A DNA stretch of 64,000 nt from Anolis carolinensis (Eukaryota): NCBI RefSeq assembly GCF_035594765.1, contig NW_026943818.1, positions 18,360,229-18,424,228 on the forward strand. The letters run 5' to 3'. Below are positions 3,965 to 53,859 of this stretch, one piece after another. A program made the position numbers and the translations under genes. The first letter of the stretch is position 1. Every line of letters starts with the position of its first letter. A model generated the notes under the pieces. That model was not told where the DNA came from and searched no databases. It saw only the letters and a list, made by a program, of their open reading frames with translations.

Positions 3965-4186
3965 GTATATTACAAAACAAAATAACATAGAATCATAGAG
4001 TTGGAAGAGACCACATGGTCCATCTAGTGATTTTATTCCAACCCCATGCCATGCAGGAAAAGCACAAACATCCCAGGCAAATGGCCATCCAGCCTCTGCT
4101 TGATGATGATGATAGTAACAATAAACAGAGTTGGAAGAGACCACATGGGCCATCTAGTCCAACCCCATGCCATGCAGGAAACTTAC

Positions 4187-4366
4187 CCAGGTCTCCAAAA
4201 TGAGCAGCTTCCATGTGGCTGGGCTGCTTCTTAAGCGCGGCCGTGCGGCTGCTGGAAGACTCCATGTTGGCCGAGATGGCATTGATGGCCACATGGCTTG
4301 GTCCGGCCGCCTCCAGCAAGGCATGCTTCCGGGTGCTTCTCTGCGGGGAATGTACTGCTGCTGCAG
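4187..4366 (-). CDS. AKAP10: AKAP10 coding exon 3
   Basis: Encodes HALLEAAGPSHVAINAISANMES...KKQPSHMEAAHFGDLG; TTCAG acceptor, GTAAG donor. Confidence 0.95.
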
Positions 4367-4808
4367 CTGAATCAGGGAAAGGAAGAAAGACAACAGCAGC
4401 AAAAATTGAATATGCACAATTGTGGAAACAACAAGCGACACCAACAACAAAAGAAACGGATTACCAAAGTCTTTGAGATGGCGGAGATGGACAGACTATC
4501 TTTAGTCCTCCAGCAAATTAATCTGAAGACTCTACAACAATGGAAACCTTTTATAGACTAGGGGAATTCCAACCCCAAATAGGGAAACCTATCTCTTCCA
4601 GCAGGCCTACCCAGTCAATTTTAATGGTGAATTTTAAACTCTACTGTATGCCTTGTTTTTGTTTTGTGTATTTTGATATTTATTTTATAGAGGTATGTTT
4701 TAATATGTGTATTATACAGTGTTTTAAAATGATTGTGTGTTTGTTTATTACAATGTAGTAATGCTGTAACCCGCCTCGAGCTGTGAGCAGAGATGGGCAA
4801 GAAATAAA

Positions 4809-5596: not shown

Positions 5597-6084
5597 CTGC
5601 AAAACACAAAAACATCTCTGTTAGGGGATCGTCTGCAGCAAAGATGGAATTATAGTCAAGCTGGTTTGTGTCTTCTTTGGGGAGATAAAGCGGGTATAAA
5701 TAAATATAATAATAATCTATATCATCAGTACACATAATAAAAGTGAAAAAATGTGTATGCATGTATGTGGCAGAGATGTCCACTTACACAGATAGCCTCC
5801 CGCTTCCACAAACAGCTCTAGTTCCCACTGAGCAGGAGATACCAATGGCCCTCCTTCCACTGATATGCAGGTTATAGTGAGCGCCAAGCCTTGTTTCGAC
5901 AAAAAGCCAAAATTCTCAAAATCCAATCCTCACAGGGACAGAAAGTGAAATGAAGCCTTCCGAGCAGAGGCACAGACAGTAAAGCAAACCCCACAAAGCA
6001 AAAAAAAACAAACCTGTATATTTATGGATGGAGTGACACTTAAAAACTGCCCCTGTTCCAACTTACATACAAAATTCAACTTAA

Positions 6085-7012
6085 GATAATCTACATAATA
6101 CTACTACTACTAATAATAATAATTTCAACTAGAAGATACATCTATATATAATAATAGTGAAGATAATAATAATGACAATAATAATAATTTCTACTAGAAG
6201 ATATATCTATATATAATAATAGTGAAGATAATAATGGCAGTCATAATAATAATTTCTACTAGAGGATACATCTATATATAATAATAGTGAAGATAATAAT
6301 AATGACAATAATAATAATAATTTCTACTAGAAGATACATCTATATATAATAATAGTGACGATAATAATGGCAGTCATAATAATAATTTCTACTAGAGGAT
6401 ACATCTATATATAATAATAGTGAAGATAATAATAATAATGACAATAATAATAATTTCCACTAGAAGATACATCTATATAAATAGTGAAGATAATAATGAC
6501 AATCATAATAACTTCTACTAGAAGATATATCTATATATAATAATAGTGAAGATAATAATAATAATGACAATCATAATAATAATTTCTACTAGAAGATACA
6601 TCTCTATATAATAATAGTGAAGATAATAATAATGACCGTCATAATAATTTCTACTAGAAGATACATCTATATATAATAATAGTGAAGAGAATAATAATGA
6701 CAGTCAAAATAATAATTTCTACTAGAAGATACATCTATATATAATATTAGTGAAAATAATAATAATAATGACCGTCATAATAATTTCTACTAGAAGATAC
6801 ATCTATATAAAATAATAGTGAAGATAATAATAATGACAGTCATAATAATTTCTAGTAGAAGATACATCTATTTATAATAATAATGATGAAAATAATAATG
6901 ACAATCATAACAATAAATTCTACTAGAAGATACATCTATATATAATGATAGTGAAGATAATAATAATAATGACAATCATAATAATAATTTCTACTAGTAG
7001 ATACAGCTATAC
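6085..7012. repeat. AT-rich minisatellite (~60-bp unit, core AATTTCTACTAGAAGATACATCTATATA), about 15 copies
   Basis: Directly visible tandem array. Confidence 0.9.
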
Positions 7013-9782: not shown

Positions 9783-10859
9783 TATTACTAATAATATTAC
9801 AATATATTGATATAGTACAATATAGTAATTTATTGCCAGTATTGTGCTATGCTAATAATATAATACTGTATGTAAATTTAATTTGTAAGCCGCTCTGAGT
9901 CCCCTTTGGGGTGAGAAGGGCGGCATATAAATGTAGCAAATAAATAAATAATTCTTCCATGCTTGGTGGACTTATAGGCTGATGCAGACTTTTTGGGAAA
10001 AGGTAATCATGGAAACAAACAAAATCATGACTAAAAAGATTAAGAAAAACCCAGAAATGTGCCTCTTGGGTTTATTTGGTGAAAAAATAGCAAAATTATG
10101 GAGGGTGGAATAATGTAAGTTAGATGTTTGTAACTGAGGGACGGTCTCGTCAGTCTATAATATAAAAGTTTATGAAAGCTTCTGGCAACCTGAGCCTAAG
10201 AGCAAGCTCTGCCTATATCTTCAAGCCCTGCTCAATGCTTCCGGCTTCTCTTTGCACTGAAGGACACACAGAGGAGGTAAGACGATTGGCAGCTACCAGC
10301 CTAGCAAAGCAATCTTGATTCTCTGACCCACCCTTCATTGTTCTCAGCCTCTCCGCCTATAGAAAAAGAAAGCCTGCTTTATTCTGAAGGCGGCTTGAAA
10401 GCTTTCTAACAGTCAATGCCTTACAATGGGTTTGCTACAGGAACCTTTAAGGGTCACTGGGAGGAATCTTCAAATAATCAGAGTTCCTTTTCCCCAGTAA
10501 TAGTCATCCAGAAAACACTGGATGCCATCCTGGATGCCACTTATTTGCTGAAAAGTGCGGTTTCTTGTTCTGTTTCTGTGCATTTCCCTGTCCTGGGACC
10601 ACATGGATATCAACCATCATTCACCTTCCAAGTCAACTCCCAAAGCTCCTTTATTATTGCATAACAAGGAACACAGAGCTCTCTGTTGCAGTGAACGACA
10701 AGCAGTCACCCAAAATAATAATACTAATAAAGATAATACATGGTTTTCCTTTCTTAAAACAAGACTAAAACAGATTATGTCACTAGAAACAATTTTAAAT
10801 CTACAACATATAAACATGAAATCAGATTAAAGACAAACTTGTTAAAAACAAAATAAGTG

Positions 10860-11605
10860 CTTGGATGCTGCCTTCCTGCACAACAGTAGGGGGCTGGATT
10901 GGATGTCTATCTGTCAGGAGGGCTTAGATTGTGCCTGCCTTATTAATAGAATGGGGCTGCAATGGATATCCATATGTTAAGAGGGCTTGGATGGTGCCTT
11001 CCTATACACCAGAAGGCAGCTGGGTTGGATGTCTATCTGTTAAGACGGCTTGATTGGTGCCTTCCTACACAACAGGAAGGGGCTGGGTTGGATGTCCATC
11101 TGTTAAGAGGGGTTGACTGGTGCCTTCCTATACAACAGAAGGGGGTTGGGCTGGATGTCCATCTGTTAAGATGGCTTGATTGGTACCTTCCTACACAACA
11201 GAAGGGGGCTGGGTTGGATGTCCATCTGTTAAGAGGGCTTGGATGGTGCCTCCCTATACAACAAAAGGGGGCTGGCTTGGATGCCCATTTGTCAAGGGGC
11301 TTGGATAGTGCCTTCCTACACAACAGAAGGGGGCTGGGCTGGAAGTTCATCTGTTAAGAGGGCTTGGGTGGTGCCTCCCTATACAACAGAAAGGAGCAGG
11401 GTTGGATGTCCATTTGTCAAGGGGGCTTGGATGGTGCCTTCCTATACAACAGAAAGGGGCTGGGCTGGAAGTTCATCTGTTAAGAGGGCTTGGATGGTGC
11501 CTTCCTATACAACAGGAAGGGGTTGGGCCGGATGTCCCTCTGTCAAGGGGGCTTGGATGGTGCCTTCCTATACAAGAGAAAGGGGTTGGGCTGGATGGCC
11601 TTCGT
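10860..11605. repeat. 63-bp minisatellite (about 12 copies) derived from the CR1 3' end
   Basis: 21-aa periodicity in spurious ORFs; unit resembles GGATGGCCATCTGTC..TTCCTG..GGGGGTTGGACT. Confidence 0.85.
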
Positions 11606-25125: not shown

Positions 25126-26948
25126 GATTGGCTTCCAGGCTCTGGGTTTCAGCAATGGGAAGGGCATCCGCTTAGCCAGCCGTGGCCTTTCTGTGGCCTG
25201 TTGTGTGGCTCTGTTTCCTAGGAGCCAGCTGGCCGGCTGTCCATTTGTTGGGATCCGTAATCGGTGGGTCTCCGTCCTTTCTTCTCTGTGTGCTTTTGCA
25301 GCAGCATGTTTGTGCAAGCCAGCAGCGCCCTTCCCAGATCAAACCTTGGGTAGGTCTGCTGCTAATTGGCGTGAGAGCGTTTCAAAACGTGGCACCGCCA
25401 ATGCATTTGATCCTCCCCGGCGTCTGTGCAGCGTTTGCCTTCAGATAATTACTCGCCGTACATTAATATCGAGGCTTTGATGTATTGACAGCTTTCATCT
25501 GGGAAACCAAAGAGGCCGAAAGTGTGCACAGATTTCATAGGCGGCTACGGAGGGAAGTATCTTCCTATAGCTCCCATTTTAAAAAGTGGGAATTCGGGGG
25601 GAAAGGTGGTTGTTTTTGGATGGGAGAGCAATGCCGAAAAGCACAGATGGCCATTAAATGCTGCTAAGTAGCTGCAGGAAAATGTTCAGCATTCACAGTG
25701 GCTTTTGCAATGGGGCCAACCTTCCTTTTGACCCATCAAACCAATTTCCCAGCGGGGTTTTCAACAAATGCTTGGGAGGGTTCCTGTTTTGGGTTGGTTT
25801 TGTCAGATTATATCCCACTAGTTTGGTTCCAAGCCTCACAGATGAGAGGAAAGCGGGATATAAATATAATTTCTGAAAGACATTTTAGCGGCATCAGCAT
25901 TCACTGGATGGCGGAGGAGATTGGAATCCCAAACACTTGAGAAATAAGCGGATAAGGGAAGCCCTTCATTTGGAGCCACTTCCATTTGTATCTGGGTTTC
26001 TCTTGAACCCAACACACCTTGGGTTTTCAAAGGCTGTTTACGGTATACGCCTTTCAAGTCTTTGCAAAATATCTTCAAATCGCAGCTGGAGACCAAAAAT
26101 GCAAAACCTCGAGGGCCTGCGTGAAAGAAACTAAGCAGCATTGGATCCAAGCCATTTGGCAAAGTTCTCTCTCTTTGGGCCTTGTTAGAAAAGCGATGGC
26201 AATAAAACCCGAACCCAGCCACCTGTCGTTGCCAAAATCGGGCCGACGGCAAAGAAAAACTTGGGAGATGAGAGCCCTCCAGACATCTTTCTCAGTTTCT
26301 TAGCCACTGGTGTCTATAAATGCGCTTCTTTCAGAGGTGCCGAGTCAAAAGGCACAGATGAAGGAATGGAAAGGCAAGGAGGAGGAGAACAAGCAGCAAG
26401 CTGTCGATGGTTCCTTTCCCCTTCTGCCTCCAAAATTCCAGGCGGAGAAGCGAAATATGACTCTATCTACTCGAATCTAATGCTCATCTTTGGGGGCTAA
26501 ATGACCTCGCCAAAATGATGGTGTGCATTAGATTTGCTTCATGGGATGCAGGGATTTGTAGTTTGGTGAGGCATCAGCAAGGCCTTGTCAAACTACTGGT
26601 ACATGATTTCATAGCATTTACAGCATAGCATTCATATTCATTTCAGAGTGTAGAAACTACCCAAAGAATGATCCCTACTTTCAAATCCCATTTTTATTTT
26701 CCGGCCACTCCGCAGACGGCAGCGTTTTGCATGCAGCGCCTTCAAAATTATCATCCGAATGAGATTAAATGTGAAAACGCAGTCGAGATGTTTGCCTGGG
26801 AGGGAGGCACACAAAAGCAGGGCGGTTGTGAGAGATAGAAAGGTCTCCCCCCACCCTCCGTTCTTCTCTATTCCTCCTATCCCGTTCTCTCTGAACAAAA
26901 TGTGTAGTCTTCCAGCTGCAGAACTATTATAATTGTATATTTATATTA

Positions 26949-27271
26949 CAGTAGAGTCTCACTTATCCAACACTTGCTTATCCAACGTTCTGGATTATCC
27001 AACGCATTTTTGTAGTCAATGTTTTCAATACATCGTGATATTTTGGTGCTAAATTGGTAAATACAGTAATTACTACGTGGCATTACTGCCTATTGAACTA
27101 CTTTTTCTGCCAAATTTGTTGTATAACATGATGTTTTGGTGCTTAATTTGTAAAATCATAACCTAATTTGGTGTTTAACAGGCTTCTCCTTAATGCCTCC
27201 TTATTATCCAACATATTCACTTATCCAACATTCTGCCGGCCCGTTTATGTTGGATAAGTGAGACTCTACTG
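26949..27271. mobile_element. Same MITE, copy 5 (absent from duplication unit B)
   Basis: TIRs and TA flanks. Confidence 0.88.
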
Positions 27272-28450
27272 TACATGCAATATTACTAATAATATTGCAA
27301 TATAGTAGTATAATATATTGTATGTATATATACTTGTAAACCGCCCTGAATCCCCTTCAGGGTGAGAAGGGTGGGATATAAATGTCGCTAATAAATAATA
27401 AATAAATAATGCAAAAGGGTTGGTGACGGGCTGGATAAATGTCCTTGGTGGGCTATATCTGTCCCGCAGGCCATAGTTTGAGGATCCCTGACCTAAGAGA
27501 ACATCTCCTCCTGCCGTTTCCAGTACAAATGACATTGAACTCAGTTTGCAGCCACTGGAAGAAGACAAGCGCAAAGGCTGAGGAGACTATAGAAAATGGG
27601 ACTCTTTAGAAGTTGATAAGGCAGAGGGTTAACTGGGAACTGTCCCTTGCAAATTGAAGCAAACCAAGCTATGCTGTGGCAGACATAATATGGCAGGCGA
27701 GTTTCAGTGGCTCCTTTCCGCCCTCCATGCTGAAATGGAAAGCAATTGCCTGTCGGAGCTTCCTAATACAGCAGAAAATCAATAAACCAGTGGAGATGTC
27801 TGGAGAGGGTCATCACTTGGGTCTGTTGATATAATCGAGTTGGTTTGAAAACAGTACATTCAAAGGAAGTTAATTACTGGGAATGCCTTCTCCCTGGAGA
27901 CCCCCTTTTTCTTATTAGCTTCTTTGGCCTTCTCCCTCCTTTCTCCGTTTCTTCCATCTACAGCTTATTTTCTCTTTCGGTGCATCAATCTAGTGCAAAC
28001 CAAGATTTTGAGAAGCCAGGGAGAGGAGTATAAAATGGATTTCACAGTATATTAATAGTTGCTGAGCTCTGAGAAATTGCTTATTCCCTTTCCCTGTCCT
28101 CTCTGTATTTTTGGACTGGAGTTTGTTAAAGTTACTAAAACTACACAAAACTTCCACCTTGTGTGGCCAAAAGTTGTTTCTTATACATTTAGTGAAAGTT
28201 GCTTTTATTGGTGCCTATAATTAAAGACACCTGTTGATATATGGTGACCTCATGAAGTGTGTAAAGTATTCTTTGGCCATTGTTTTCTTCAATTATATTA
28301 TTTGTTGTGAGAATCCTTTGGTGACAGTTTGCCCTATTTCTTGGGGTTTTACTTGCCCTTTTGTCAGTCGATCAATGCAGTCAAAAAGAATCGTGGAAAG
28401 ACAGGGAAGAAAAATACATCTTAGATTATTTCATTGAATTAAAGAGCTGT

Positions 28451-28538: not shown

Positions 28539-31500
28539 TCAGTAGTAGGTCTCCCTGTCAAACCAACCACCAGGATGTCTGCGGATAATAAGCTTCCGGA
28601 TTTCGTCATAGACGAAAATCAGCAGGCTGAATGGCATGGGGTAAATCCACCACATGAGCTGGAGCGGGTACATGCGCAAGGCAACCTCCATGCCGGGGCA
28701 GTATGACAGGAAGACCGCCAGGGTGGTTTCCTGAATGATGCCGAAGATCAGGATCTTGTTATTCATGCCCTGCTGGAAGACAGAAAGCTTCCGGGTCTTG
28801 CAGGTGATCAGGTCCATCCATTGCACAACCACAATGCTGCAGAAGAAGGCGGTGTGGCAGGTGTATTCGATCACTTTCCGCTGCTCGTAAGTCCACTGCT
28901 GGCCATAGCTGTCCTCCAAGTCATTCTTGGATTGGTCGTCCCAATCCAGGCGGATCCCTAACAAGGTGGTGGGGAAGAACCCGTATTCAGCCATGATCAT
29001 GAAGTAAGTGAAGAAGCCGGCAATGGCTTGCATCATGCCGACCTGCCCGTACGACTTGCTGATGAGGCGTTCATTCACTAGCTTGTCTGTCTTGGAGTTG
29101 CGTGGTTGCCTCTTCATGATGTCACTCTCCGCCTTCTCGTAGGCCAGGGAGATGGCGGGCACCATGTCAGACCCCAGGTCAATGCACAGGATGGCAATGG
29201 TTCCCAGAGGCAATGGGATGCTCAAGATGATAAACATCAGGAAAGGGGAGATCTCTGGGATGTTGCTGGTCAAGGTGTAGGCGATGGACTTCTTGAGGTT
29301 GTCAAAGATCAGCCGGCCTTCCTCCACGCCTGTCACGATGGAGGCAAAGTTGTCATCGAGCAGGATCATGTCTGCAGCTTGTTTGGAGACATCGGAGCCA
29401 GCGATGCCCATGGCGATGCCGATGTCGGCCTTCTTGAGCGCGGGAGAGTCGTTCACTCCATCACCCGTCACGGCCACAATGGCTCCCTGCCGCTGGCACC
29501 CTTCCACAATAATGAGTTTCTGTTGCGGGGAAGTGCGGGCAAAGACAATCTCGCTGTGGTTCCTCAGGACGTCATCCAATTCTTCAGAGGTCATATCTTT
29601 GAGGTCGCTTCCATGAATCACACAGGCCTTGGCTTCTCTTGGGTTCACCTCAGAGACGGGGATGTTGAGTCGTTCAGCAATGTCCTCTACCGTCTCAGTC
29701 CCCTCAGAGATGATGCCCACTCCCTTGGCAATGGCTTTGGCGGTGATCGGATGATCCCCAGTCACCATGATCACCTTGATCCCGGCACTTCGGCATTTCC
29801 CGACGGCGTCTGGCACAGCTGCCCGAGGCGGGTCGATCATGGAGATGAGCCCAACAAAGCAGAGTTTGTTGATGGGGAAGTTGACTTTCTCCACGTCAAA
29901 TTTGAAGGCTCGGGGAAATTGCTTCTCAGGGAGGTAGCTCTGGCAGAAACCCAGCACCCTCTCGCCCAGCCCTCCCAGCTCATGATAAGCATTCTGAAAG
30001 GCCTGATGCATTGTTTTGTCCAAGTTGACTTCCTTCCCATTAATCATGATGGTGGAACATACATCAAGGATCCTCTCGGGAGCCCCTTTCATCACCAGGA
30101 TGTGGCCTTTGGGTTTATCCTCGGCTTCATGGATGGACAGCTGGTATTTGTTGGTGGAGTTGAAAGGAATCTCCACTACTTTAGGGTTCTGCTCCCGCAT
30201 GGTCGCCACAGACCCGTAGGAGAGCTCTACGCTTTTCAGGAGTGCTGACTCAGATGCGTCCCCAGTAGTTTCCCTCTTGGCAACAGGGACGTCCTCCTGC
30301 CCAGGCTTGAAGTCAGCCCGGTTGCAGAGCCCGGCGATACGGGTGAGGGCCAACCAAGTGGGTGAGCGTTTCATCATCACTGCCCCTGCTTGTTGCTCAG
30401 TGGTGTCAGCAGCAAAGATCTCATTGTCATACCACATATGAGCAACAGTCATACGGTTCTGGGTCAAGGTTCCGGTCTTGTCTGAGCAGATGGTGGAGGT
30501 GGAGCCCAGCGTCTCCACTGCCTCCAGGTTCTTCACCAGGCAATTCTTTAAGGCCATGCGCTTGGCTGTGAGGGCCAGGCAGACAGTGACAGTGGGCAAG
30601 AGCCCTTCGGGGACGTTTGCCACGATTATGCCGATCAAGAAGACAACTGCTTCCAGCCAGCGGTAACCGAGTATAATGGCCAGGATGAAGAAGGTAACTC
30701 CCAGGAAAACAGCCACAGAGGTGATGATATGGATGAAGTGTTCAATCTCTCGGGCAATGGGGGTGGATCCTTCCTCCAGGCCGGACGCTAAGGAAGCAAT
30801 GCGTCCCATCACGGTATCATCTCCCGTTAAGATCACGACGCCTCGAGCAGTTCCTTCCACACAGTTGGTTGAGAAGAAACAAATATTGCGCGTTTCCAGT
30901 GGGTTGTCATGGGTGTAATCTGCACTTCGGCTCTGCGGCTCTGATTCACCCGTGAGGGAGGAATTGTCCACCTTGCAGCCGCTGGCCGAGACAATCCGCA
31001 AATCGGCGGGGATCCGGTCTCCTCCTTTGATCTCCACCAAGTCCCCCACCACCACTTCCTCCGCATTGATCTGCGTCCTCTTGCCGTCCCGGATGACCAG
31101 GGCTTTCTGTGGTACCATGTGCTTGAAAGACTCCATGATCTGGGAGCTTTTGGCCTCCTGGTAATAGGAGAAGAAGCCTGTGATCACCACCACCGATGTC
31201 AATACAATACCCAGGTAGAGGTGGTCCATTTGCGCGTGGCTCTCCATGAGTTCCTGGATGCCATAGGCAATGAAGCAGAGGACGGCCCCGATCCACAGCA
31301 GGATGCTGAAGCCCCCAAAGAGCTGGCGACAGAATTTGACCCACTCTGGCGTGGTCGGGGGCGGCGTCAGGGCGTTGGGGCCATCCCGGGCCAAAATTTC
31401 TGCCGCTTGGGTTGTAGTAAGGCCTGTGCTCAGGTCAGTCTTATACTTCTGGGTGAGTTCTTCCAAGGAGAGCTTGTGGTCATCGATGTCCACTTCCTTC

Positions 31501-31568
31501 TTCAGATCATCCAGGTCTTCCCCCTTTTTCTTCTTGCCTTTCTTCGGAGGGGGTTTCTTCTTCCCCAT
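28539..31568 (-). CDS. Intronless Na+/K+-ATPase alpha subunit, alpha2/alpha4-like retrogene, copy A (1009 aa), nested antisense in TMEM211-like intron 2
   Basis: Single uninterrupted ORF with [35 protein letters not shown] and C-terminal ETYY; vertebrate ATP1A genes normally have over 20 exons. Confidence 0.97.
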
Positions 31569-31739
31569 AATGGCAGTGGTCCCTTTCCTCGGGACCTCTT
31601 AATGATATCTAGGGGTACAGAAGGGTGGGCGGGGCAGTCTAATGGAAGAGGAATCAGGAGGAGCAATGAAGGGGAGCAGGATGCCCCCCCAAAGGGACCT
31701 CCCACCCCCCAAAGTTGGACAAGAGTTGGGACAACAGGC

Positions 31740-32000
31740 CACGTTGCCTGTTAAGAGACCCTCCTCACTGACCACCTTGAGAAGACTGAAGACCAAGGCC
31801 CTAGCAACCAACCAAATGTTTGTCTTCTAGTATCTGAGACTCCTCCCCTTAGTAACTGAGGCCACGCCCCCAGCAACTGAAATCACAGCTCCCAGGAAAC
31901 CTAATGGGTCTTGTCTCTTAGCAACCAAGACTCAGCCCACCTCTGATGGCAACAAATGGAGGTATTGCCCTAGAACCTGAGGCCCCGCCACTTCCGTGCA
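31740..32000 (-). promoter_or_regulatory. Putative promoter of ATPase copy A: RFX X-box-like, GC-box and ETS-like motifs
   Basis: CCTAGCAAC (31800), GTCTCTTAGCAAC (31913), ATGGCAAC, GCCACGCCC, GCCCCGCC, ACTTCCG within about 430 bp of the ATG. Confidence 0.55.
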
Positions 32001-32509
32001 AATATATGATTTTTCCTTGATAATAGGGAGATTACAGTCAGTTATTAGAATAATACTATTTTTTGTACAATTTCTAGGTCCTCCAGGGCAACTCTGGGAT
32101 CAACTTCCTCCAAAAGTGCTGGAGGACCAGGTTTTTCTTATACTCAAGGCAGTTTTTGTCAGTTTTTTTATATAGCCTGGGTACCCAGTGTTGTTTGAAA
32201 AAAATGGATGTTATGAATGGACCCATGAGAAATTGATGCAGCTCCATGGCTGATAGGGTTAGCAGTAGTTTGGATGTGGGTGAAGGTACTGCAAATCCCA
32301 TCATCCGTGGTCCATTATCCCCCAAATTGCACCAGGACGTAAGGTGGATCATGGGGGGGGGGCTGTGTGCCATTTGGTTCAGATCTCTTGTTTGTGGGGG
32401 TTGCAGTGATCTGTGAAAGTGGGAACCAAACCTGCCACTCACATACTCCACCGCTCATATACATACCCACAAACATACATACAAACAAACATTGGCTTTT
32501 ATTACTATA

Positions 32510-32762
32510 TTTCAAATCCAGGGAGCAGGGTGAGCTCCCACAGCCTCAGCTTCTGCCAACCCAGCAGTTCGAAAACATGCAAATGTCATTAGATCAATAG
32601 TTACTACTCTGACAAGAAGGTAGCGGCGATCCATGCCGTCATGCCAGCCACATGACCTTGGAGGTGTCTATGGACAACGCCAGCTTAGAAATGGAGATGA
32701 GCACCAATCCACAGAGTCAGACATGACTAGACTTAATGTCAGGGGAAAACCTTTATCTTTAC
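32510..32762 (+). mobile_element. Sauria SINE
   Basis: CAGCAGTTCGAAAACATGCAAATGT..CACATGACCTTGGAGG..GGGGAAAACCTTTA tail. Confidence 0.85.
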
Positions 32763-34137
32763 GTATATAAAATATAGAAATATTACCTACAATGCATAGT
32801 ATTCACTGACAGTCTCCCATGCAAGTACTAATTTAGTTTCCAACATCAAATGGGATCTGGTGCCTTTAGGCCCTACAAGGGATTATAGAAGTTTTCATTT
32901 CATTCAACTCGACAAAAAATTCAAGCTGCTAAAGTGTAATAGAAAAGTATGCAATTAAAATACCCATGGAAGAAAAACTATCATATCTCTCAGTCTGTAA
33001 CCTTTTTTGTTTTCTCCGCCGTCTGTCTGGGGATTCAAGGGACATTAAGGCCAGTTGAATGAGTGTAGCATCAGGGTCAAGAGGAAAGATGGATGCCTCA
33101 TCTCGCAAATCTGAGCGGCTATTATCTGGTCTCTATGGATTTCCCTGTAGAGTGTGAAAAAATGCACCCCAGAACTATAGCAATTGCGATGTTTTGGATT
33201 AAAATCGGGCTGAGTTTGGCTTTCATGAGCAGGACACGTCTCCTGCTTCGCTCGGGTTTGTCCTTCTCTTATTGTGGAATTGATTCAGCAATTTTCTAAT
33301 GCCCAGAGGAAAGGACATCTCCCAATCCACCTTCATAGTTCATTCAAGCAAAATGGCAAAAATCCACTCTCTCCTAAAATTCATTCCTTCCAAGCAATTT
33401 GGGATCTATCCATGGTGCTGAAGTTAACTTTTTTAAAAAATTGCCCAACGGAATTGCTCATCTCTCATCTGTCTATCTCTTTGTCTGCCTGTCCATATCA
33501 GCTCCCTCTCTCTTCATCTCTCTCTCTGTCTGTCTGTTTCTTCATCTATCTATTTATCTACCTGTCTGCCTATTCTATCCATCTATCTCTTCATCTCTAT
33601 CATTCGGTATTCCTTCTTACCTTGCTGTCTGTCTATTAATCCCTTTTTCTTCATTTTTCTCATTCAATCCATCTATCTCCCTGCCTACCTGTCTATCTAT
33701 TTATATATCGCTCTTAACCTCTCTCTCCATCCATCGCTGTGGCTACGAAAAAGAATGGTTAAAGGCAATGGAGATTCCTAGATATTCTCCATCCAAGGCC
33801 TAGACTCCATCCCTCCTCTCTCTTCCTTTTCTTTTGGAAGGGGAAGTCCATTTCTCCTTGCATTTGTGCTTCATGGGCAGTGCTGACTTGGTAGCATTGC
33901 CTTGATGAAGCGGTAAGTCAAATCCTGGCGTCTGGTGCCACCTAGAAGCTCTTGCTCGAAATGCAGCAGTAGCTCTGCTTTGTAGCAGTGGCCCATGCCT
34001 CATCAATACCTTGCTTTGGCCACTGCAGAGCATCCAACCTGGGACATAAAGGATGCCTAGCGAGGATCTATTTTGTCAGATGGATGAAACCGTAGGTACT
34101 AGTCCCGTGGATATAGAGTTTGTCCTGCAATTACATA

Positions 34138-35034
34138 TCATCAAGTTTGCAGACGACACCAAACTGGGAGGGATAGCTAACACTCCAGAAGACAGGAGCA
34201 GAATTCAAAACGATCTTGACAGACTAGAGAGATGGGCCAAAACTAACAAAATGAAGTTCAACAGGGACAAATGCAAGATACTTCACTTCGGCAGAAAAAA
34301 TGGAAATCAAAGATACAGAATGGGGGACGCCTGGCTTGACAGCAGTGTGTGCGAAAAAGACCTTGGAGTCCTCGTGGACAACAAGTTAAACATGAGCCAA
34401 CAATGTGATGCGGCTGCTAAAAAAGCCAATGGGATTCTGGCCTGCATCAATAGGGGAATAGCGTCTAGATCCAGGGAAGTTATGCTCCCCCTCTATTCTG
34501 CCTTGGTCAGACCACACCTGGAATACTGTGTCCAATTTTGGGCACCACAGTTGAAGGGAGATGTTGACAAGCTGGAAAGCGTCCAGAGGAGGGCAACTAA
34601 AATGATTAAGGGTCTGGAGAACAAGCCCTATGAGGAGCGGCTTAAAGAGCTGGGCATGTTTAGCCTGCAGAAGAGAAGGCTGAGAGGAGACATGATAGCC
34701 ATGTACAAATATGTGAAGGGAAGTCATAGGGAGGAGGGAGCAAGCTTGTTTTCTGCTGCCCTGCAGACTAGGACACGGAACAATGGCTTCAAACTACAGG
34801 AAAGGAGATTCCACCTGAACATCAGGAAGAACTTCCTCACTGTGAGAGCTGTTCGACAGTGGAACTCTCTCCCCGGGGCCGTGGTGGAGGCTCCTTCCTT
34901 GGAGGCTTTTAAGCAGAGGCTGGATGGCCATCTGTCGGGGGTGCTTTGAATGCGATTTCCTGCTTCTTAGCAGGGGGTTGGACTAGATGGCCCATGTGGT
35001 CTTTTCCAACTCTACTATTCTATGATTCTATGAT
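34138..35034 (+). mobile_element. 5'-truncated young CR1 LINE (ORF2 C-terminus plus 3' tail)
   Basis: Open frame IKFADDTKLGG...RLDGHLSGVL*, tail ending (ATTCTATG)n; absent at the paralogous site near 49340. Confidence 0.95.
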
Positions 35035-36336
35035 CTCTCAACCAACATCTTAATCCAAGACTAAACGGTTCTGTCCGGTTTCAGCAGAAAATGGTAAGTT
35101 GTTTTATAGCCAGGTCGTAAATCATCTCAGTGAAAAGGATGTGTCAAATGGAAACAGTTGGATGCTGTACGGTTTGGGAAACAGAAGTCAGTGCAGGAAT
35201 TGTCGCCCTCGGCGCCAGGAAGATTAGAAAGCAGCAGAGAATATAAGGTGACCTTCTCTGGGAAATTGATGCCGGTGGCCTGAGCCATAAACCATCTTCC
35301 TGCTGATGCAGATTTTTCTTATCCTGGGTGGCAAAGTACTCCAGGGAAAGTCTCTTAAGGTGATTTAAAGGAAATGAACACAGGGAAACGGACGTTGGGG
35401 GGATCGAAGGCACCTCAAGAAAGGTGAACCTTATATGTCCATATTCCAGCTCTCGGATTTAGGTTTTGCCCCATGCAAAGGAATGGGATCCGTTTCTCTT
35501 GGGACAGGGCACTCCTTCTTCTTTGCTATGTTGACATTGACAGCTGTTCTTAGCGGTGTCTCTGAAAACACCACACTTGGATGGTTTATTGGATACTCTG
35601 CGTCACGGCATTGTTCCTACAGTTGTACTGGATGAGTTCATTTTTCCCCCTCATCTGATATTAATGTCGACAGCAACATGTTCACTCACCATATGTATAA
35701 GTCTATGGTTCATAATGATGGGCTGAGCTCTTGCCTTTCACCACTCTGCTCAGAGAAGGGGATGATCCCTTGTTTGAGGAAAGATTCTTGTACAATGCTC
35801 ATGTTGATAAGCCAACCTGAGTTTGTTGGAGTTGATTGTGGGACTAAAATCTCTAGACAGGAGCATTTGATGTTTGGGTGGACGTCCCTCCTGGGTCCTT
35901 AAAAAGGGACGTCTTAAGGCAAAGAAGTAATTGTCAAGAAAAGAGTTTCACTCCAGTACATCTCATCCTGTGAAAAGACCAGACGCTCACACACTTTGAG
36001 ATATGCTTTTAGTGGCTTTTTAGGGTCACATTTTGTTCCCAAATGCCTCCTCTTAGGGGACATTTGCCACATTTCTTCCAAACAGGACGTGAAGGTTGAT
36101 TGTTGATGTAGAATGAAAGGGAAAAAATGGAAAGGAAAGTGGAGGAAATGGTATCTCCCTGCTGCAGAAATAGTTTCCATTTATCCTCCATGTGTGTCAA
36201 ACCACAACTGTGCCCCAACTGGCCACTTATTTATTACCATTATACATGAAGCCCTTCACACAACACAAAGAGTCCTTTCTGGCTGTCGTCTGTGGTGTTT
36301 TGTCATTGAACTGTATTAGAAATGTTGAGAAATGTT

Positions 36337-42272: not shown

Positions 42273-43894
42273 CAGCAGGAGTTACTCACATTTGCAGAGG
42301 TAGTGCTCTGTAGGAGAGGTAGCGATCTGTAAAAAGTGCTAGTACAATAAGTACTATAAATAAGTACTGTGTACTATGTCTTTCGCATGGTCCGAGGCTT
42401 TGGGGACCCAACTACTGGTAACATGAGATTTCAAATTTTTCCCAGGTTTTTTTTTTTTTTTAAATAGGAGTGGACGGGAACTAAACTTTGATGTTCTAAA
42501 TTACAAAGAGTGCACTTTTGGCTGCTGTGTATTACATTCGGCAGAAAATATGGTCCTCCATTTCTGAAACAGATTACAGACAGAGTTCGACACATTACCG
42601 TCGGGATGGAGGTGAACGTCGTGTGATGGGACCCATTGGAAATTGTTATCAAACGGTTTCAGGAATGGCATATTTCCTAATGTGATGGAACTCCGTCATC
42701 AAAAGCATTGCCAAAATAACCAGTTGCGGTCTCTTGAGCATAATACAACGGGCTGAGCGATCCCAATGCGCAATTGAATAGTTTGCAGTGTTTTAGTAGC
42801 ACAGAAATTTGTAGTTTCATCTGTTCACTGCAAAGAGATGGAGGGATTCGAAGTCTAAAGGACTGCAAATGCCTTCCCAAATGCGGTTTCCTTCATCTGT
42901 ATGAAATGAGAAACCGTGAACACATATTCTGGATACAGGAGAGGATGAGAAGAACACCAAATCCTGGTTAGAATCAAAACCCTTTTTGGATTTAGATCCC
43001 AACCTGGCCAAAATAGGATAACGTTTGCAACCCATAAAGGGTATATTTCCCAAAAGTCTCAGGCAAAAGCAATTTGCGGCATTCTTTCCCGGTTTATAGT
43101 GTTTTCCCTCATTCGTTCACGGTGTTTTGCCCTCATGAGCAGCCCCACATTTTCATCTCATTTCATTTCATCTCATTTCATTTCATACACATCGTTCTTC
43201 ATCCCACGAAACTCTCTCCATCTTTCCCGGAGAGGCCTATTGTGTATCAATGATCGCGGCTCCCTGCTTTCAAATCCCATTTTTATTTTCCGGCCGCTCC
43301 GCAGATGGCAGCGTTTTGCATGCAGCGCCTTCAAAATTATCATCCGAATGAGATTAAATGTGAAAACGCAGTCGAGATGTTTGCCTGGGAGGGAGGCACA
43401 CAAAAGCAGGGCGGTTGTGAGAGATAGAAAGGTCTCTTCCCACCCCCACCCCCACCCCGTTCTTCTCTATTCCTCCCATTCCTTTCTCTCTGAACAAAAT
43501 GCGTAGTCTTCCAGCTGCAGAACCATCGTGACTGTGATGTCGCTTGAGGGCAAAGAAACGAATAAAGAGATGCCTTCTTGTGAAGCTGCATCATAAAGGG
43601 ATAGTCAGCCTTCCACGTTGGCTGCTGTTAGGGGCACAGGACCCCTTTGTGAAATAGCAGTTTTAAAAACCTAAGACAGGGACCGCAAACTTTTTACGCC
43701 ATGGGCTGGTTCACAGTCCCTCAGATTGTCAAGTGTGCTTTCGGCTGATGAGAGAGTCAAGCTAATTATGATGGTTCTTGCTGTTGCCTTCAAGTTGTCC
43801 CAGACTTATCAGTTTTCTTGTCAAGATTTGTTCAAAGGAGATATTCATTTATCTTCATTTGAGGCTGAGAGAGTGTGGCTTGGCTACAGGCAGC

Positions 43895-44180
43895 CTCCCT
43901 CCCTCTCCTTTTTTCTCCCTCCCTAATTCCCTTCCTTCCTTTTCCTCTTTCTCCCTCCTCCCTTCCTGTCTCATTTCCTTTCTTCTTTCCTCCCTTTTCT
44001 CTCAGCTTCCTTTTATACTTCCTTCACTTGCCCCTTTCTCCCTCCCTCATTCCCTTTCTTCTTTCCTTTTTTCCTTTCCTCTCTCCTTCTTTCCATCCTT
44101 CCTTTCTTTCTTGCCCTTGCTTCCCCCTCTCTCATTCCCTTCCTTCCTTCCTTCTTTCCTTTCTTTCTTCCTTCTTCCTC
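43895..44180. repeat. Long polypyrimidine/polypurine low-complexity tract
   Basis: Nearly pure C/T on the plus strand. Confidence 0.85.
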
Positions 44181-44443
44181 AGTGGCATCTTATGCGAAAG
44201 CAGCGTGAGGGAAATGGCAGCAGCAAAAAGGTGCCAATGCAAAAGGGTTGGTGACAGGGGCCGGATAAATGTCCTTGGTGGGCCTATATCTCTCCCAAAG
44301 GCCATAATTTGAGGATCCCTGACCTAAAACAACATCTCCTCTTGCCCTTTTCAGTACAAATGACATTGAACTCAGTTTGCAGCCACTGGAATAAGACAAG
44401 AGCAAAGGCAGGAGGAGACTATAGAAAATGGGACTCTTTAGAA

Positions 44444-45358: not shown

Positions 45359-48300
45359 TCAGTAGTAGGTCTCCCTCTCTACCCAACCGTCAGGATGTCT
45401 GCGGATAATGAGCTTCCGGATTTCGTCATAGACGAAAATCAGCAGGCTGAATGGCATGGGGCAAAGCCACCACGTGAGCTGGAGTGGGTACATGCGCAAG
45501 GCAACCTCCATGCCGGGGCAGTATGACAGGAAGACCGCCAGGGTGGTTTCCTCAATGAGGCCGAAGATCAGGATCTTGTTATTCATGCCCTGCTGGAAGA
45601 GAGAAAGTTTCCGGGTCTTGCAGATGATCAGGTCTGTCCACTGCACAACCACAATGCTGCAGAAGAAGGCGGTGTGGCAGGTGTATTCGATCACTTTCCG
45701 CTGCTCGTAAGTCCACTGCTGGCCATAGCTGTCCTCCAAGTCGTTCTTGGATCGGTTGTCCCAATCCAGGCGGATCCCCAACAAGGTGGTGGGGAGGAAC
45801 CCGTATTCAGCCATGATCACAAAGTAAGTGAAGAAGCCGGCAATGGCTTGCATCATGCCGATCTGCCCGTACGACATGCTGATGAGGCGTTCATTCACTA
45901 GCTTGTCTGTCTTGGAGTTGCGCGGATGCCTCTTCATGATGTCACTCTCTGCCTTCTCGTAGGCTAGAGAGATGGCGGGCACCATATCGGTCCCCAGGTC
46001 AATGCACAGGATGGTGATGGTTCCCAGAGGCAATGGGATGCTAAAAATGATAAACATCAGGAAAGGGGAGATCTCTGGGATGTTGCTGGTCAAGGTGTAG
46101 GCGATGGACTTCTTGAGGTTGTCAAAGATCAGCCGGCCTTCCTCCACGCCTGTCACGATGGAGGCAAAGTTGTCATCGAGCAGGATCATGTCTGCAGCTT
46201 GTTTGGAGACATCGGAGCCAGCGATGCCCATGGCGATGCCGATGTCGGCCTTCTTGAGCGCGGGAGAGTCGTTCACTCCATCACCCGTCACGGCCACAAT
46301 GGCTCCCTGCCGCTGGCACCCTTCCACAATAATGAGTTTCTGTTGCGGGGAAGTGCGGGCAAAGACAATCTCGCTGTGGTTCCTCAGGACGTCATCCAAT
46401 TCTTCAGAGGTCATATCTTTGAGGTCGCTTCCATGAATCACACAGGCCTTGGCTTCTCTTGGGTTCACCTCAGAGACGGGGATGTTGAGTCGTTCAGCAA
46501 TGTCCTCTACCGTCTCAGTCCCCTCAGAGATGATGCCCACTCCCTTGGCAATGGCTTTGGCGGTGATCGGATGATCCCCGGTCACCATGATCACCTTGAT
46601 CCCGGCACTTCGGCATTTCCCGACGGCGTCTGGCACAGCTGCCCGAGGCGGGTCGATCATGGAGATGAGCCCAACAAAGCAGAGTTTGTTGATGGGGAAG
46701 TTGACTTTCTCCACGTCAAATTTGAAGGCTCGGGGAAATTGCTTCTCAGGGAGGTAGCTCTGGCAGAAACCCAGCACCCTCTCGCCCAGCCCTCCCAGCT
46801 CATCATAAGCTTTCTGAAAGGCCTCTTGCATTGTTTTGTCCAAGTTGACTTCCTTCCCATTGATCATGATGGTGGAACATACATCAAGGATCCTCTCGGG
46901 AGCCCCTTTCATCACCAGGATGTGGCCTTTGGGTTTATCCTCGGCTTCATGGATGGACAGCTGGTATTTGTTGGTGGAGTTGAAAGGAATCTCTGCTACT
47001 TTAGGGTTATGTTCCCGCATGGTCGCCACAGACCCGTAGGAGAGCTCTACGCATTTCAGGAGTGCTGACTCAGATGCGTCCCCGGTAGTTTCCCTCTTGG
47101 CAACAGGGACGTCCTCCTGCCCAGGCTTGAAGTCAGCCCGGTTGCAGAGCCCGGCGATACGGGTGAGGGCCAACCAAGTGGGTGAGCGCTTCTTCATCAT
47201 CACTGCCCCTGCTTGTTCCTCAGTGGTGTCAGCGGCAAAGATCTCATTGTCGCACCACATATGAGCAACAGTCATGCGGTTCTGGGTCAAGGTTCCGGTC
47301 TTATCTGAGCAGATGGTGGAGGTGGAGCCCAGCGTCTCCACTGCCTCCAGGTTCTTCACCAGGCAATTCTTTAAGGCCATGCGCTTGGCTGTGAGAGTCA
47401 GGCAGACAGTGACGGTGGCCAAGAGTCCTTCGGGGACGTTTGCCACGATTATGCCGATCAAGAAGATAACCGCCTCCAGCCAGTGGTAACCGAGTACAAT
47501 GGCCAGGATGAAGAACGTCACTCCCAGGAAAACAGCCACAGAGGTGATGATATGGATGAAGTGTTCAATCTCTCGGGCAATGGGGGTGGTTCCTTGCCCT
47601 AGGCCAGATGCTAAAGAAGCAATGCGTCCCATCACAGTATCATCTCCCGTTAAGATGACGACGCCTTGAGCAGTTCCTTCCACACAGTTGGTTGAGAAGA
47701 AGCAAATATTGCGTGTTTCGAGCGGGTTCTCGTTGGTGTAATCTGCGCTTCGGCTCTGCGGCTCTGATTCACCCGTGAGGGAGGAGTTGTCCACCTTGCA
47801 GCCGCTGGCTGAGACAATCCGCAAATCGGCGGGGATCCGGTCTCCTCCTTTGATCTCCACCAAGTCCCCCACCACCACTTCCTCCGCATTGATCTGCGTC
47901 CTCTTGCCGTCCCGGATGACCAGGGCTTTCTGTGGTACCATGTGCTTGAAAGACTCCATGATCTGGGAGCTTTTGGCCTCCTGGTAATAGGAGAAGCAGC
48001 CTGTGATCAGCACCACCGATGACAATACAATACCCAGGTAGAGGTTGTCCTTTTGCGCGTTGCTCTCCACTAGCTCCTGGATGGCATAGGCAAAGAAGCA
48101 GAGGATGGCCCCGATCCACAGCAGGATGCTGAAGCCCCCAAAGAGCTGGCGACAGAATTTGACCCACTCTGGCGTGGTCGGGGGCGGGGTCAGGGCGTTG
48201 GGGCCATCCCGGGCCAAAATTTCTGCCGCTTGGGTTGTAGTAAGGCCTGTGCTCAGGTCAGTCTTATACTTCTGGGCGAGTTCTTCCAAGGAGAGCTTGT

Positions 48301-48391
48301 GGTCATCGATGTCCACTTCCTTCTTCAGATCCTCCAGTTCTTCCCCCTTTTTCTTCTTGCCTTTCTTCAGAGGAGGTTTCTTCTTCCCCAT
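45359..48391 (-). CDS. Intronless Na+/K+-ATPase alpha subunit, alpha2/alpha4-like retrogene, copy B (1010 aa)
   Basis: Same P2C ATPase motifs; intact ORF ending [12 protein letters not shown]. Confidence 0.97.
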
Positions 48392-48504
48392 AATGGCAGT
48401 GGGGTACCTTTCCTCGGGACCTCTTAATGGTATCTAGGGGTACAGAAGGGTGGGCTGGATAGACCTCCCACACTCCAAAGTTGGACAAGAGTTGGGACAA
48501 CAGG

Positions 48505-48657: not shown

Positions 48658-49878
48658 CTCATCTGTCTATCTCTTTGTCTGTCTGTTTGTCTGTCCATAT
48701 CTGCTCCCTCTCTCTTCATCTCTCTGTCTGTCTGTTTCTTCATCTATCTATTTATCTACCTGTCTACCTATTTCATCCATCTATCACTTCATCTCTCTCT
48801 CTCATTCGGTATTCCTTCTTACCTTGCTGTCTGTCTATTAATCCCTTTCTCTTCATCTTTCTCATTCAATCCATCTATCTCCCTGCCTACCTTTCTGCCT
48901 ATCTATTTATATATCGCTCTTAACCTCTCCATCCATTGCTGTGGCTACGAAAAAGCATGGTTAGAGGAAATGGAGATTCCTAGATATTCTCCATCCAAGG
49001 CCTAGACTCCATCCCTCCTCTCTCTTCCTTTTCTTTTGGAAGGGGAAGTCCATTTCTCCTTGCATTTGTGCTTCATGGGCAGTGCTGACTTGGTAGCATT
49101 GCCTTGATGAAGCGGTAAGTCAAATCCTGGCGTCTGGTGCCACCTAGAAGCTCTTGCTCGAAATGCAGCAGTAGCTCTGCTTTGTAGCAGTGGCCCATGC
49201 CTCATCAATACCTTGCTTTGGCCACTGCAGAGCATCCAACCTGGGACATAAAGGATGCCTAGCGAGGATCTATTTTGTCAGATGGATGAAACCGTAGGTA
49301 CTAGTTCCGTGGATATAGAGTTTGTCCTGCAATTACATATCTCTCCTGGTTAATCCTCAACCAACACCTTAATCCGGGACTAAACTGTTCTGTCCAGTTT
49401 TAACAGAGAATGGTAAGTTGTTTCATAGCCAGGTTGTAAATAATCTCAGTGAAAAGGATGTGTCAAATGGAAACAGTTGGATGGCTTATGATTTCGGAAA
49501 CAGAAGTCAGTGTGGGAATTGTCGCCCTTGGCATCAGGAAGATTAGAAAGCAGCAGAGAATATAAGGTGGTCTTCTCTAGGAAACTGATGCCGGTGGCCT
49601 CAGCCATAAACCATCTTCCCGCTGACGCAGATTTTTCTTATCCTGGGTGGCAAAGTACTCCAGGGAAAGTCTCTTAATGTGATTTAAAGGAAATGAATGC
49701 AGGGAAACTGACATTGGGGGGATCGAAGGCACCTCAAGAAAGGTGAACCTTATCTGTCCATTTTCCAGCTCTCAGAGAAGTGCCTGGATAAGATCCACAT
49801 AGACTCAGGATTTAATAAAGTGTCCTCTGGAGATCAGATGGAAACCGTAACAGAAACAAGTAGTTTATTTTTAAGGTA

Positions 49879-52828: not shown

Positions 52829-53370
52829 TATACCCTGCTTTTTCTCTCTCAGAAAGAGACACAAAGCAACTTACAGTGAAACCAGTACAACTGAAAACCT
52901 AAAAGTATACAAACATAACAATAGAATATTCAATTACCATCTTCAAGTTATGTTCTCCCTCCTAGGATTTGAGAGGGATACGAAATAGGATTCATTTAGT
53001 GTGGTCTTACTAGAAAAAAAAATCTATAAGCTTCTCTTTGACTTTAAAAAAAAGTTAAAGCTACAAACAAAATGTAACTTTGAGAAAAAAAATCTATTTA
53101 AAAAGCAAACTGAAGGACAGTATGTTTAACTCCTGTTAAACTTCACAAACTAGGATAAATTTGAGTTCTAGCCCTTGAAGGAATCAGCTGGCTTTGGTTT
53201 AAAATCTCACATACAAATGTGGCAAAATGTATGCTATTGTTTCTACGCAGAAAGGACATTGAGCCGAAATATTACTGGCAGCCGTTGTCTTATTTTGGGG
53301 TGATAGCATTCATATTCCCCTGCATGCAAATTGTCATGGCAAACACCAACAAGAATGCTATTGTACTCAC

Positions 53371-53500
53371 CCAAAACCTCAAACAGCAGTGGGGTTTTTT
53401 CGGCAAACTGGCTCCAGTGCTTCATACTTTCAATGACAGCAGAGAGAATTCTCAGAGTGTTGCCTTTTTCTTTCAGCTTGGAGTAAAGCACCGGCCCTTT
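53371..53500 (-). CDS. SPATA22: SPATA22 coding exon 6
   Basis: KEKGNTLRILSAVIESMKHWSQFAEKTPLLFEVL; 130 bp. Confidence 0.93.
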
Positions 53501-53859
53501 CTTTTGTAAGGAGACAAAGGAAAAGGTCAGAATAGATTCGGGTGAGTCAATACCTTGATACTTTATGTCATTGTAAAAAAAATTGTTAAAAACTGCAAAT
53601 ATGGGAACATAAGACTGATTGTCTGGTTCCCATGTTGGTCTTTGGTATCTTAACCTATGTAGTAGTAGTTGTTGTTGATATTTATTACACACCTCTCCTT
53701 GCAGCTATTATGTATGTATGCATGCCATGTTTTCCCAAGGTAGGTTATCGGCCTTCTTCTGTTCCATGGCATTTTGTATAATTATATTGCGTGCATTTTT
53801 TCTTAAAGCTGAAAATATGTTAAAATGCAAATAGGTTTGTTTTCAGGTGGGGCCGGTTT

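Follow-up and report, generated by a model that had tools for sequence, protein, structure and literature searches.

The window (the whole 64-kb stretch of Anolis carolinensis DNA that was analysed) holds two Na,K-ATPase alpha genes in tandem, both intact and intronless, and a tract of 757 bp in one of them differs from the other at a single base. Our preferred reading, to which we give a probability of roughly 0.55, is that the tract derives from recent non-allelic gene conversion between the pair and that its position can be accounted for without a selective barrier.

The two genes, termed copy A and copy B, have the same orientation and a spacing of 16.8 kb (Table 1). Their DNA is 95.8% identical across 3271 bp, with pS of 0.075 and pN of 0.024 over the whole gene, and the differences that remain between them are 56 non-synonymous and 52 synonymous. 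The full P2C alpha architecture was recovered in both (Pfam domains; PDB matches), including the P-type domains and the catalytic motifs TGES, DKTG, TGD and GDGVND (Pfam). All of the 20 catalytic positions checked are kept in copy A and in copy B (20/20 each). Ion-site positions, among them E327, S775, N776, E779, D804, D808, Q923, D926, E954 and the C-terminal YY, are kept at 23/23 in copy B and at 21/23 in copy A, the exceptions being T807S and E953Q. No third copy or fragment of the pump gene was found by tblastn within the window. Copy A is real sequence and no sequencing phantom, since 0.73-0.95 of its words are contained in 20 of the 24 sequencing runs listed (8 studies; one of these runs may be the assembly's own source), while only 46% of its 31-mers are found elsewhere in the window. 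No RNA run was listed among those containing it, a result that speaks neither for nor against expression. About 40 bases 5′ of each ATG, on the minus strand, there is a pyrimidine run ending in AG (31600-31620 and 48420-48440), which might serve a non-coding first exon as its splice acceptor.

Table 1. Coordinates of the two pump genes, their internal segments and their flanks within the window.
Feature	Position	Strand	Description
Copy A	28539..31568	minus	1009-aa Na,K-ATPase alpha ORF, intact, intronless, ATG 31568; faster-diverging of the pair
Copy B	45359..48391	minus	1010-aa Na,K-ATPase alpha ORF, intact, intronless, ATG 48391; conservative member of the pair
Near-identical tract, copy A	29227..29983	minus	codons 530-780: last part of the N domain, latter half of the P domain, and M5
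Matching tract, copy B	46047..46803	minus	likely donor, on the inferred direction
Second zero-difference patch	30990..31172	minus	codons 133-193, 183 bp
Segment with highest synonymous divergence	30759..30930	minus	cytoplasmic actuator region; synonymous differences 11, amino-acid differences 6
Copy A M1-M2	31164..31319	minus	codons 84-135; 10 non-synonymous and 2 synonymous differences
Copy A end of M5 to M10	28542..29225	minus	8 of the 13 invariant-site changes
Segment upstream of copy A only	31901..33461		1.56 kb, absent from copy B
Non-coding upstream patch	33723..34139		98.8% identical to 48925-49341; ends at the element inserted in copy A
Truncated LINE with reverse-transcriptase remnant, copy-A-specific	34140..35036	+	897 bp; RVT_1 E 1.8e-4, below the Pfam cut-off
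Distal upstream homology	35037..35454		91.4% to 49356-49773; outermost limit of the duplicated unit seen
Downstream homology blocks	26672..27611		homologous to 43261-44443; broken up by copy-specific inserts

The near-identical tract and the patchwork around it

The sole mismatch of the tract (29760 in copy A, 46580 in copy B; A/G) is synonymous in a Thr codon, and mismatches at 29226 and 29984 bound the tract at exactly 757 bp. Codons 530-780 carry one synonymous difference in 178 synonymous sites and no amino-acid differences, whilst pS within the gene is 0.092 before the tract and 0.109 after it. Fourfold sites differ at 1/122 inside the tract versus 27/331 outside, and a run of this size was matched in 1 of 20,000 permutations. 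The sequence-only reading, made earlier from the letters alone, had reported one difference in about 757 bp with third codon positions included, and both statements proved accurate, the first to the base. Its description of the tract as the P and N domains did not hold, as codons 371-529 (the N domain's first 160 codons) retain A/B differences with no homogenisation and the tract crosses M5, covering residues Y771-E779, F783 and F786. Of these residues, T774 is assigned to M5 in an abstract (PMC2268108).

Outside the tract, dS heterogeneity persists (P = 0.004 once the tract is removed), so that the comparison of dS along the gene proposed by the sequence-only reading gives a non-uniform result both inside and outside the tract. 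The peak synonymous windows fall in codons 201-300 (pS 0.23 and 0.17), mostly in the cytoplasmic actuator region. The stretch at about 30760-30930 had been grouped with the divergent membrane segments; divergent it is, but it belongs to the actuator region (Pfam E1-E2_ATPase) and not to the membrane. Likewise, the many differences claimed for M1-M2 are there at the amino-acid level (pN 0.084 vs pS 0.055) but not at synonymous sites. The divergence claimed for M6-M10 was confirmed, with 22 non-synonymous and 16 synonymous differences in codons 782-1009. The map does not demonstrate conversion opposed by selection, given an M5 inside the tract, a cytoplasmic dS peak, an M1-M2 with two synonymous differences and a patch of non-coding flank that is equally homogenised.

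GC3 is 0.71 both in the tract and across the whole gene, CpG per codon is 0.15 in the tract vs 0.14 in the rest, and the GC/AT direction of differences is 20:21. Since CpG density and GC3 of the tract match those of the rest, its composition marks no mutational cold spot; the balanced GC/AT differences also rule out a GC-biased signal. Uniform divergence along the gene is ruled out by the tract statistics, the residual dS heterogeneity and the simulations described below.

The patchwork extends into non-coding DNA. The upstream patch has 5/417 mismatches vs 36/418 in the next block (Fisher P = 4e-7), the two blocks being parted by the 897-bp RT-bearing element, which was seen upstream of copy A only. 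For this patch a conserved promoter could be an alternative to homogenisation. The junctions of the element were located and further copies of it exist in the window; judged by its ATTCTATG tail, it is presumably CR1-like. Copy-specific flank insertions had been noted from the letters alone and are indeed present, the 1.56-kb segment and the RT-bearing element both being absent from copy B. A SINE-like interspersed repeat of ~330 bp occurs in seven copies that are 76-93% alike (9465, 12289, 16761, 22831, 26947, 57005, 62296), one of them in the downstream flank of copy A. Minisatellite-like tandem arrays lie at 6083-7011, 10856-11603, 14248-15379, 20489-21302 and 24242-25124. An Rfam search gave 0 matches.

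An RGS-domain gene (Pfam RGS, E 2.9e-4) is represented by minus-strand exons at 1899-2519 and 3993-4460, which we take to resemble AKAP10. A minus-strand frame at 53243-53704 holds a short exon that presumably resembles SPATA22 towards its C terminus; searches of PDB and Atlas returned no match naming it. A Kelch-like match for a neighbour gene was discarded, being based on six weak repeats. If AKAP10 and SPATA22 (a meiosis gene) are right, the pumps lie between them, away from the known ATP1A loci.

Simulated and comparative evidence for conversion

Simulations were scored on difference counts, longest run, clustering and dispersion jointly, in 47,583 runs per model. With broad, author-set and crude priors, and a veto that was all-or-none at protected residues, joint fits numbered 0 without conversion, 53 with neutral conversion and 7 with a selective veto, the comparison being of two DNA sequences with no outgroup DNA. 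Conversion is needed because no run without it fitted, and a selective barrier is not needed because neutral conversion fits. Moreover, nine other squamate pairs have 11-18% of their amino-acid differences (10-25 residues) within the tract interval, compared with 0/52 for A vs B. Together with the non-uniform dS, these results support the gene conversion that the sequence-only reading had proposed.

The preferred reading would run as follows. A squamate-specific alpha gene, probably an alpha2 retrocopy, would have duplicated in tandem after the split from A. sagrei, and repeated conversions of different ages would have left the patchwork across coding and non-coding DNA. Long tracts would be favoured where the copies were already alike, as in the conserved P domain, and would be stopped by indels. 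A recent event of B onto A would have produced the 757-bp tract, copy A meanwhile altering its membrane part. Of this, the tract, the patchiness, the ORFs, the clade and the asymmetry of the copies are observed, whereas conversion and its direction, retroposition, timing and function are deduced. The direction was probably B onto A, with 5.9 A-type invariant-site changes expected in the tract and 0 seen (P = 0.003); it is uncertain because purifying selection on the P domain of copy A could equally leave none.

Copy A and the competing accounts

With A. sagrei as reference, 34 residues are derived in copy A vs 13 in copy B. Positions invariant in 27 other rows are changed at 13 sites in copy A and at 0 in copy B. 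Twelve of the 13 are membrane-part positions, where 51-55% would be expected (P = 0.002-0.005); this enrichment suggests that something is kept distinct, whilst against the other squamate rows the bias is not significant (12:1 vs 19:11, P = 0.07). The eight between the end of M5 and M10 are T799A, T807S, I850V, V864M, I929T, L951I, E953Q and C983Y (mature alpha1 numbering). N122H is present in copy A only (codon at 31221-31223), Q111 is unaltered in both copies, and at position 120 copy B has K120, as in most of the clade, and copy A M120. E953Q was considered as a third-site lesion, an idea weakened by the little effect of E953A on cation affinity given in a meeting abstract (PMC2268108).

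The strongest competitor, possible but clearly behind the neutral account, holds that the entire gene is subject to continuing conversion and that selection purges tracts which overwrite membrane residues of copy A, the latter being a neofunctionalised pump that is cardiotonic-steroid-resistant or retuned. The 13 to 0 contrast in invariant-site changes and its membrane bias speak for this account, as does an M1-M2 in which pN exceeds pS, and clusters of amino-acid differences adjoin the ends of the tract. The median distance from a synonymous to an amino-acid difference is 11 bp vs 20 bp (tract removed, P = 0.009; null overall 20-33 bp). Such clustering is also predicted by selection against conversion, and neutral-conversion simulations reproduce it (7-23 bp). 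The account has to contend with the 7 fits of the veto against 53, the cytoplasmic peak of dS and the non-significant comparison with squamate rows. ATP1A1 and ATP1A3 are the toxin's main targets, and resistance in a minor isoform would therefore give little protection unless that isoform were expressed at a high level. N122H raised the ouabain IC50 about 254-fold in the Drosophila enzyme, and R120 belongs to a resistant combination in squamate alpha3, as given in PMC13704064; some anoles eat fireflies, according to PMC9449480. However, Q111 is unaltered, K120 is kept by copy B and not by copy A, and N122H is described as almost completely inactivating in a lizard ATP1A1 background (10.1101/2021.11.29.470343, a preprint whose journal version is marked retracted). 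The sequence-only reading had conversion opposed by selection, as in Leptodactylus frogs, and here the results fall short of it: the neutral model fits more often and a 98.8% identical patch lies in non-coding flank. Of its claim that the membrane part is distinct, the predominance of membrane positions among the changes of copy A, N122H included, stands.

A more doubtful account makes copy A a decaying duplicate under relaxed constraint, merely patched by conversion from copy B, with N122H incidental. It shares the conversion step with our preferred reading and differs only in the fate of copy A. The dN/dS of 0.32 between the copies, about 0.42 for copy A when synonymous changes are split evenly, would agree with relaxation, as would radical changes such as A331P and M845K and the two large insertions upstream. 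Against this, the 1009-codon ORF is intact, dN/dS is well below 1, the core catalytic and ion-site residues are retained, and outside the tract only 1/198 invariant cytoplasmic sites are altered, even though pS there reaches 0.13. On the open frame, the kept catalytic and ion sites, a dN/dS of ~0.4 and the single cytoplasmic change, we predict copy A to be a functional pump whose ligand, transport or other membrane-side properties have changed, rather than a pseudogene.

An origin of the tract in faulty assembly or polishing, with reads from one copy imposed on the consensus of its neighbour, is improbable, for all that 95.8% identity over 3.3 kb is a classic mis-polishing setting. One mismatch persists within the tract, graded patches occur elsewhere (183 bp with no difference, 417 bp 98.8% identical) and the heterogeneity of dS extends beyond the tract. 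The window is free of N, both proteins are on a 41.2-Mb contig, and the tract would be short enough for long reads to bridge with diagnostic sites on either side. The word shares of the sequencing runs are uninformative about the tract, because copy B supplies identical words there. Finally, it is scarcely credible that purifying selection on the P domain and low local mutation preserved the identity with no exchange at all. No other part of the protein is as conserved as this interval (183/251 positions do not vary across 27 rows), but its synonymous and fourfold sites are near-identical too, no run of that model fitted, and within it A. sagrei departs from both copies at 10 residues.

Parentage and comparison with known systems

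Judged by their proteins, copies A and B belong to a fast-evolving squamate Na,K-ATPase alpha clade. In a 33-row tree they group with seven named squamate proteins and one other in a long-branched clade (support 100/99) that stands apart from alpha1, alpha2 and alpha3, with the squamate alpha1 rows inside the alpha1 clade; the grouping of A with B has support 100/92. The gene is thus not ATP1A1, and in this it differs from the frog duplicates with which the sequence-only reading compared it. The nearest named protein is an Anolis sagrei 'alpha-2-like' (91% to copy A, 93% to copy B). The whole squamate clade has in common T781S, R934K/N935L (KTRKLS) and a basic residue at 120, M120 being found in copy A alone. 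Polarised sites join A with B at 10 positions, B with sagrei at 2 and A with sagrei at 3, and the one A. sagrei protein among the matches listed was placed outside the A+B pair; the duplication likely postdates the split from the A. sagrei lineage.

An AU test of the parent isoform, run on 22/28 rows (leaving out Candoia, Crotalus, two alpha1 and two alpha3), made alpha2 the least costly and rejected none (alpha2 P = 0.365, alpha1 P = 0.135, alpha3 P = 0.058). Isoform-diagnostic sites of the pair are mixed, with likeness to alpha3 lowest. Canonical ATP1A genes have about 23 exons, and the introns of the coding region are missing from both copies, which are uninterrupted ORFs and single tblastn blocks. 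From this absence of introns we infer retroposition, and the squamate-specific gene probably derives from alpha2 as a retrocopy. A poly(A) remnant was not seen, in that no A run of at least 10 lies within 1.5 kb 3′ of either stop, and decay of such a tail is expected in an old copy. There was no squamate-labelled alpha2 among the 120 cluster representatives listed for a bird alpha2 query, of which clusters of 732 and 38 members could contain some. The squamate gene may be either a relocated ATP1A2 or an additional paralogue.

Conversion between tandem ATP1A copies is already known, and it is nothing unusual for young tandem duplicates to share a converted tract; the host gene is less ordinary. 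Proteins of the clade are already in databases under automatic 'alpha-2-like' names. Our search of the openly accessible literature found no description of the intronless squamate clade or of the anole pair. Reptile toxin-resistance surveys, which count three paralogues, may have filed the clade as ATP1A2. In the tetrapod ATP1A survey 10.1101/2021.11.29.470343, variation of ATP1A2 at toxin sites is stated to be mostly in squamates, and its Datasets 1-2 may contain sequences of this clade as ATP1A2. The pair is a ready experiment, the catalytic core being identical and about a dozen otherwise invariant membrane positions different, N122H included; it allows a test of N122H on a lizard background and of selection holding N122H against conversion.

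Among the related systems are the squamate 'alpha-2-like' database proteins (A. sagrei P0003, Pogona P0004, Podarcis P0005, Varanus P0006, Salvator P0010, Python P0012, Crotalus P0016, Candoia P0121). The seven of them that were placed in the tree fall in one clade with A and B, and T781S, a basic residue at 120 (in copy B, not copy A) and a variable M1-M2 loop are shared features. Unlike copy A, they are without N122H, A331P, T338A, T807S and E953Q, and one protein was listed per species. Vertebrate ATP1A1, ATP1A2 and ATP1A3 (PDB 7E1Z, 8D3U, 3WGU) share with the pair the P2C alpha architecture, the catalytic and ion-site residues and the C-terminal YY. They differ in that A and B are only 79-81% identical to each canonical isoform, have an uninterrupted coding region and form part of their own squamate clade. 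Mammalian ATP1A4 is alpha2-derived and intron-bearing. Like the squamate gene, this testis paralogue (PDB 8ZYJ) is a lineage-specific, divergent extra alpha subunit; it matches copy A at 1730 bits, lower than alpha1 and alpha3 at about 1840. For the squamate gene, an alpha2 origin is the best-fitting option only.

A bolder reading, which we regard as unlikely, would see here a fourth alpha of the squamates' own, intronless through retroposition and parallel to mammalian alpha4, which was re-duplicated in this anole lineage. Copy A would then be steroid-insensitive or retuned by N122H with compensating membrane changes, and its membrane residues would be defended against conversion. The Leptodactylus ATP1A1 R/S pair resembles A and B in being tandem with a shared orientation, with signs of conversion and one derived copy substituted at 122 (10.1101/2020.08.04.234435). 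As set out by Mohammadi et al. in that preprint, the inference for the frogs is based on both paralogues being common to five species and on enzyme assays, with 12 maintained differences, Q111R+N122D and measured resistance. By comparison, A and B are an alpha2-like intronless squamate gene, seen as a pair in one species, with Q111 unchanged and N122H, known from sequence alone. If the bolder reading were true, they would be a second vertebrate example of the pattern described for Leptodactylus, in another paralogue.
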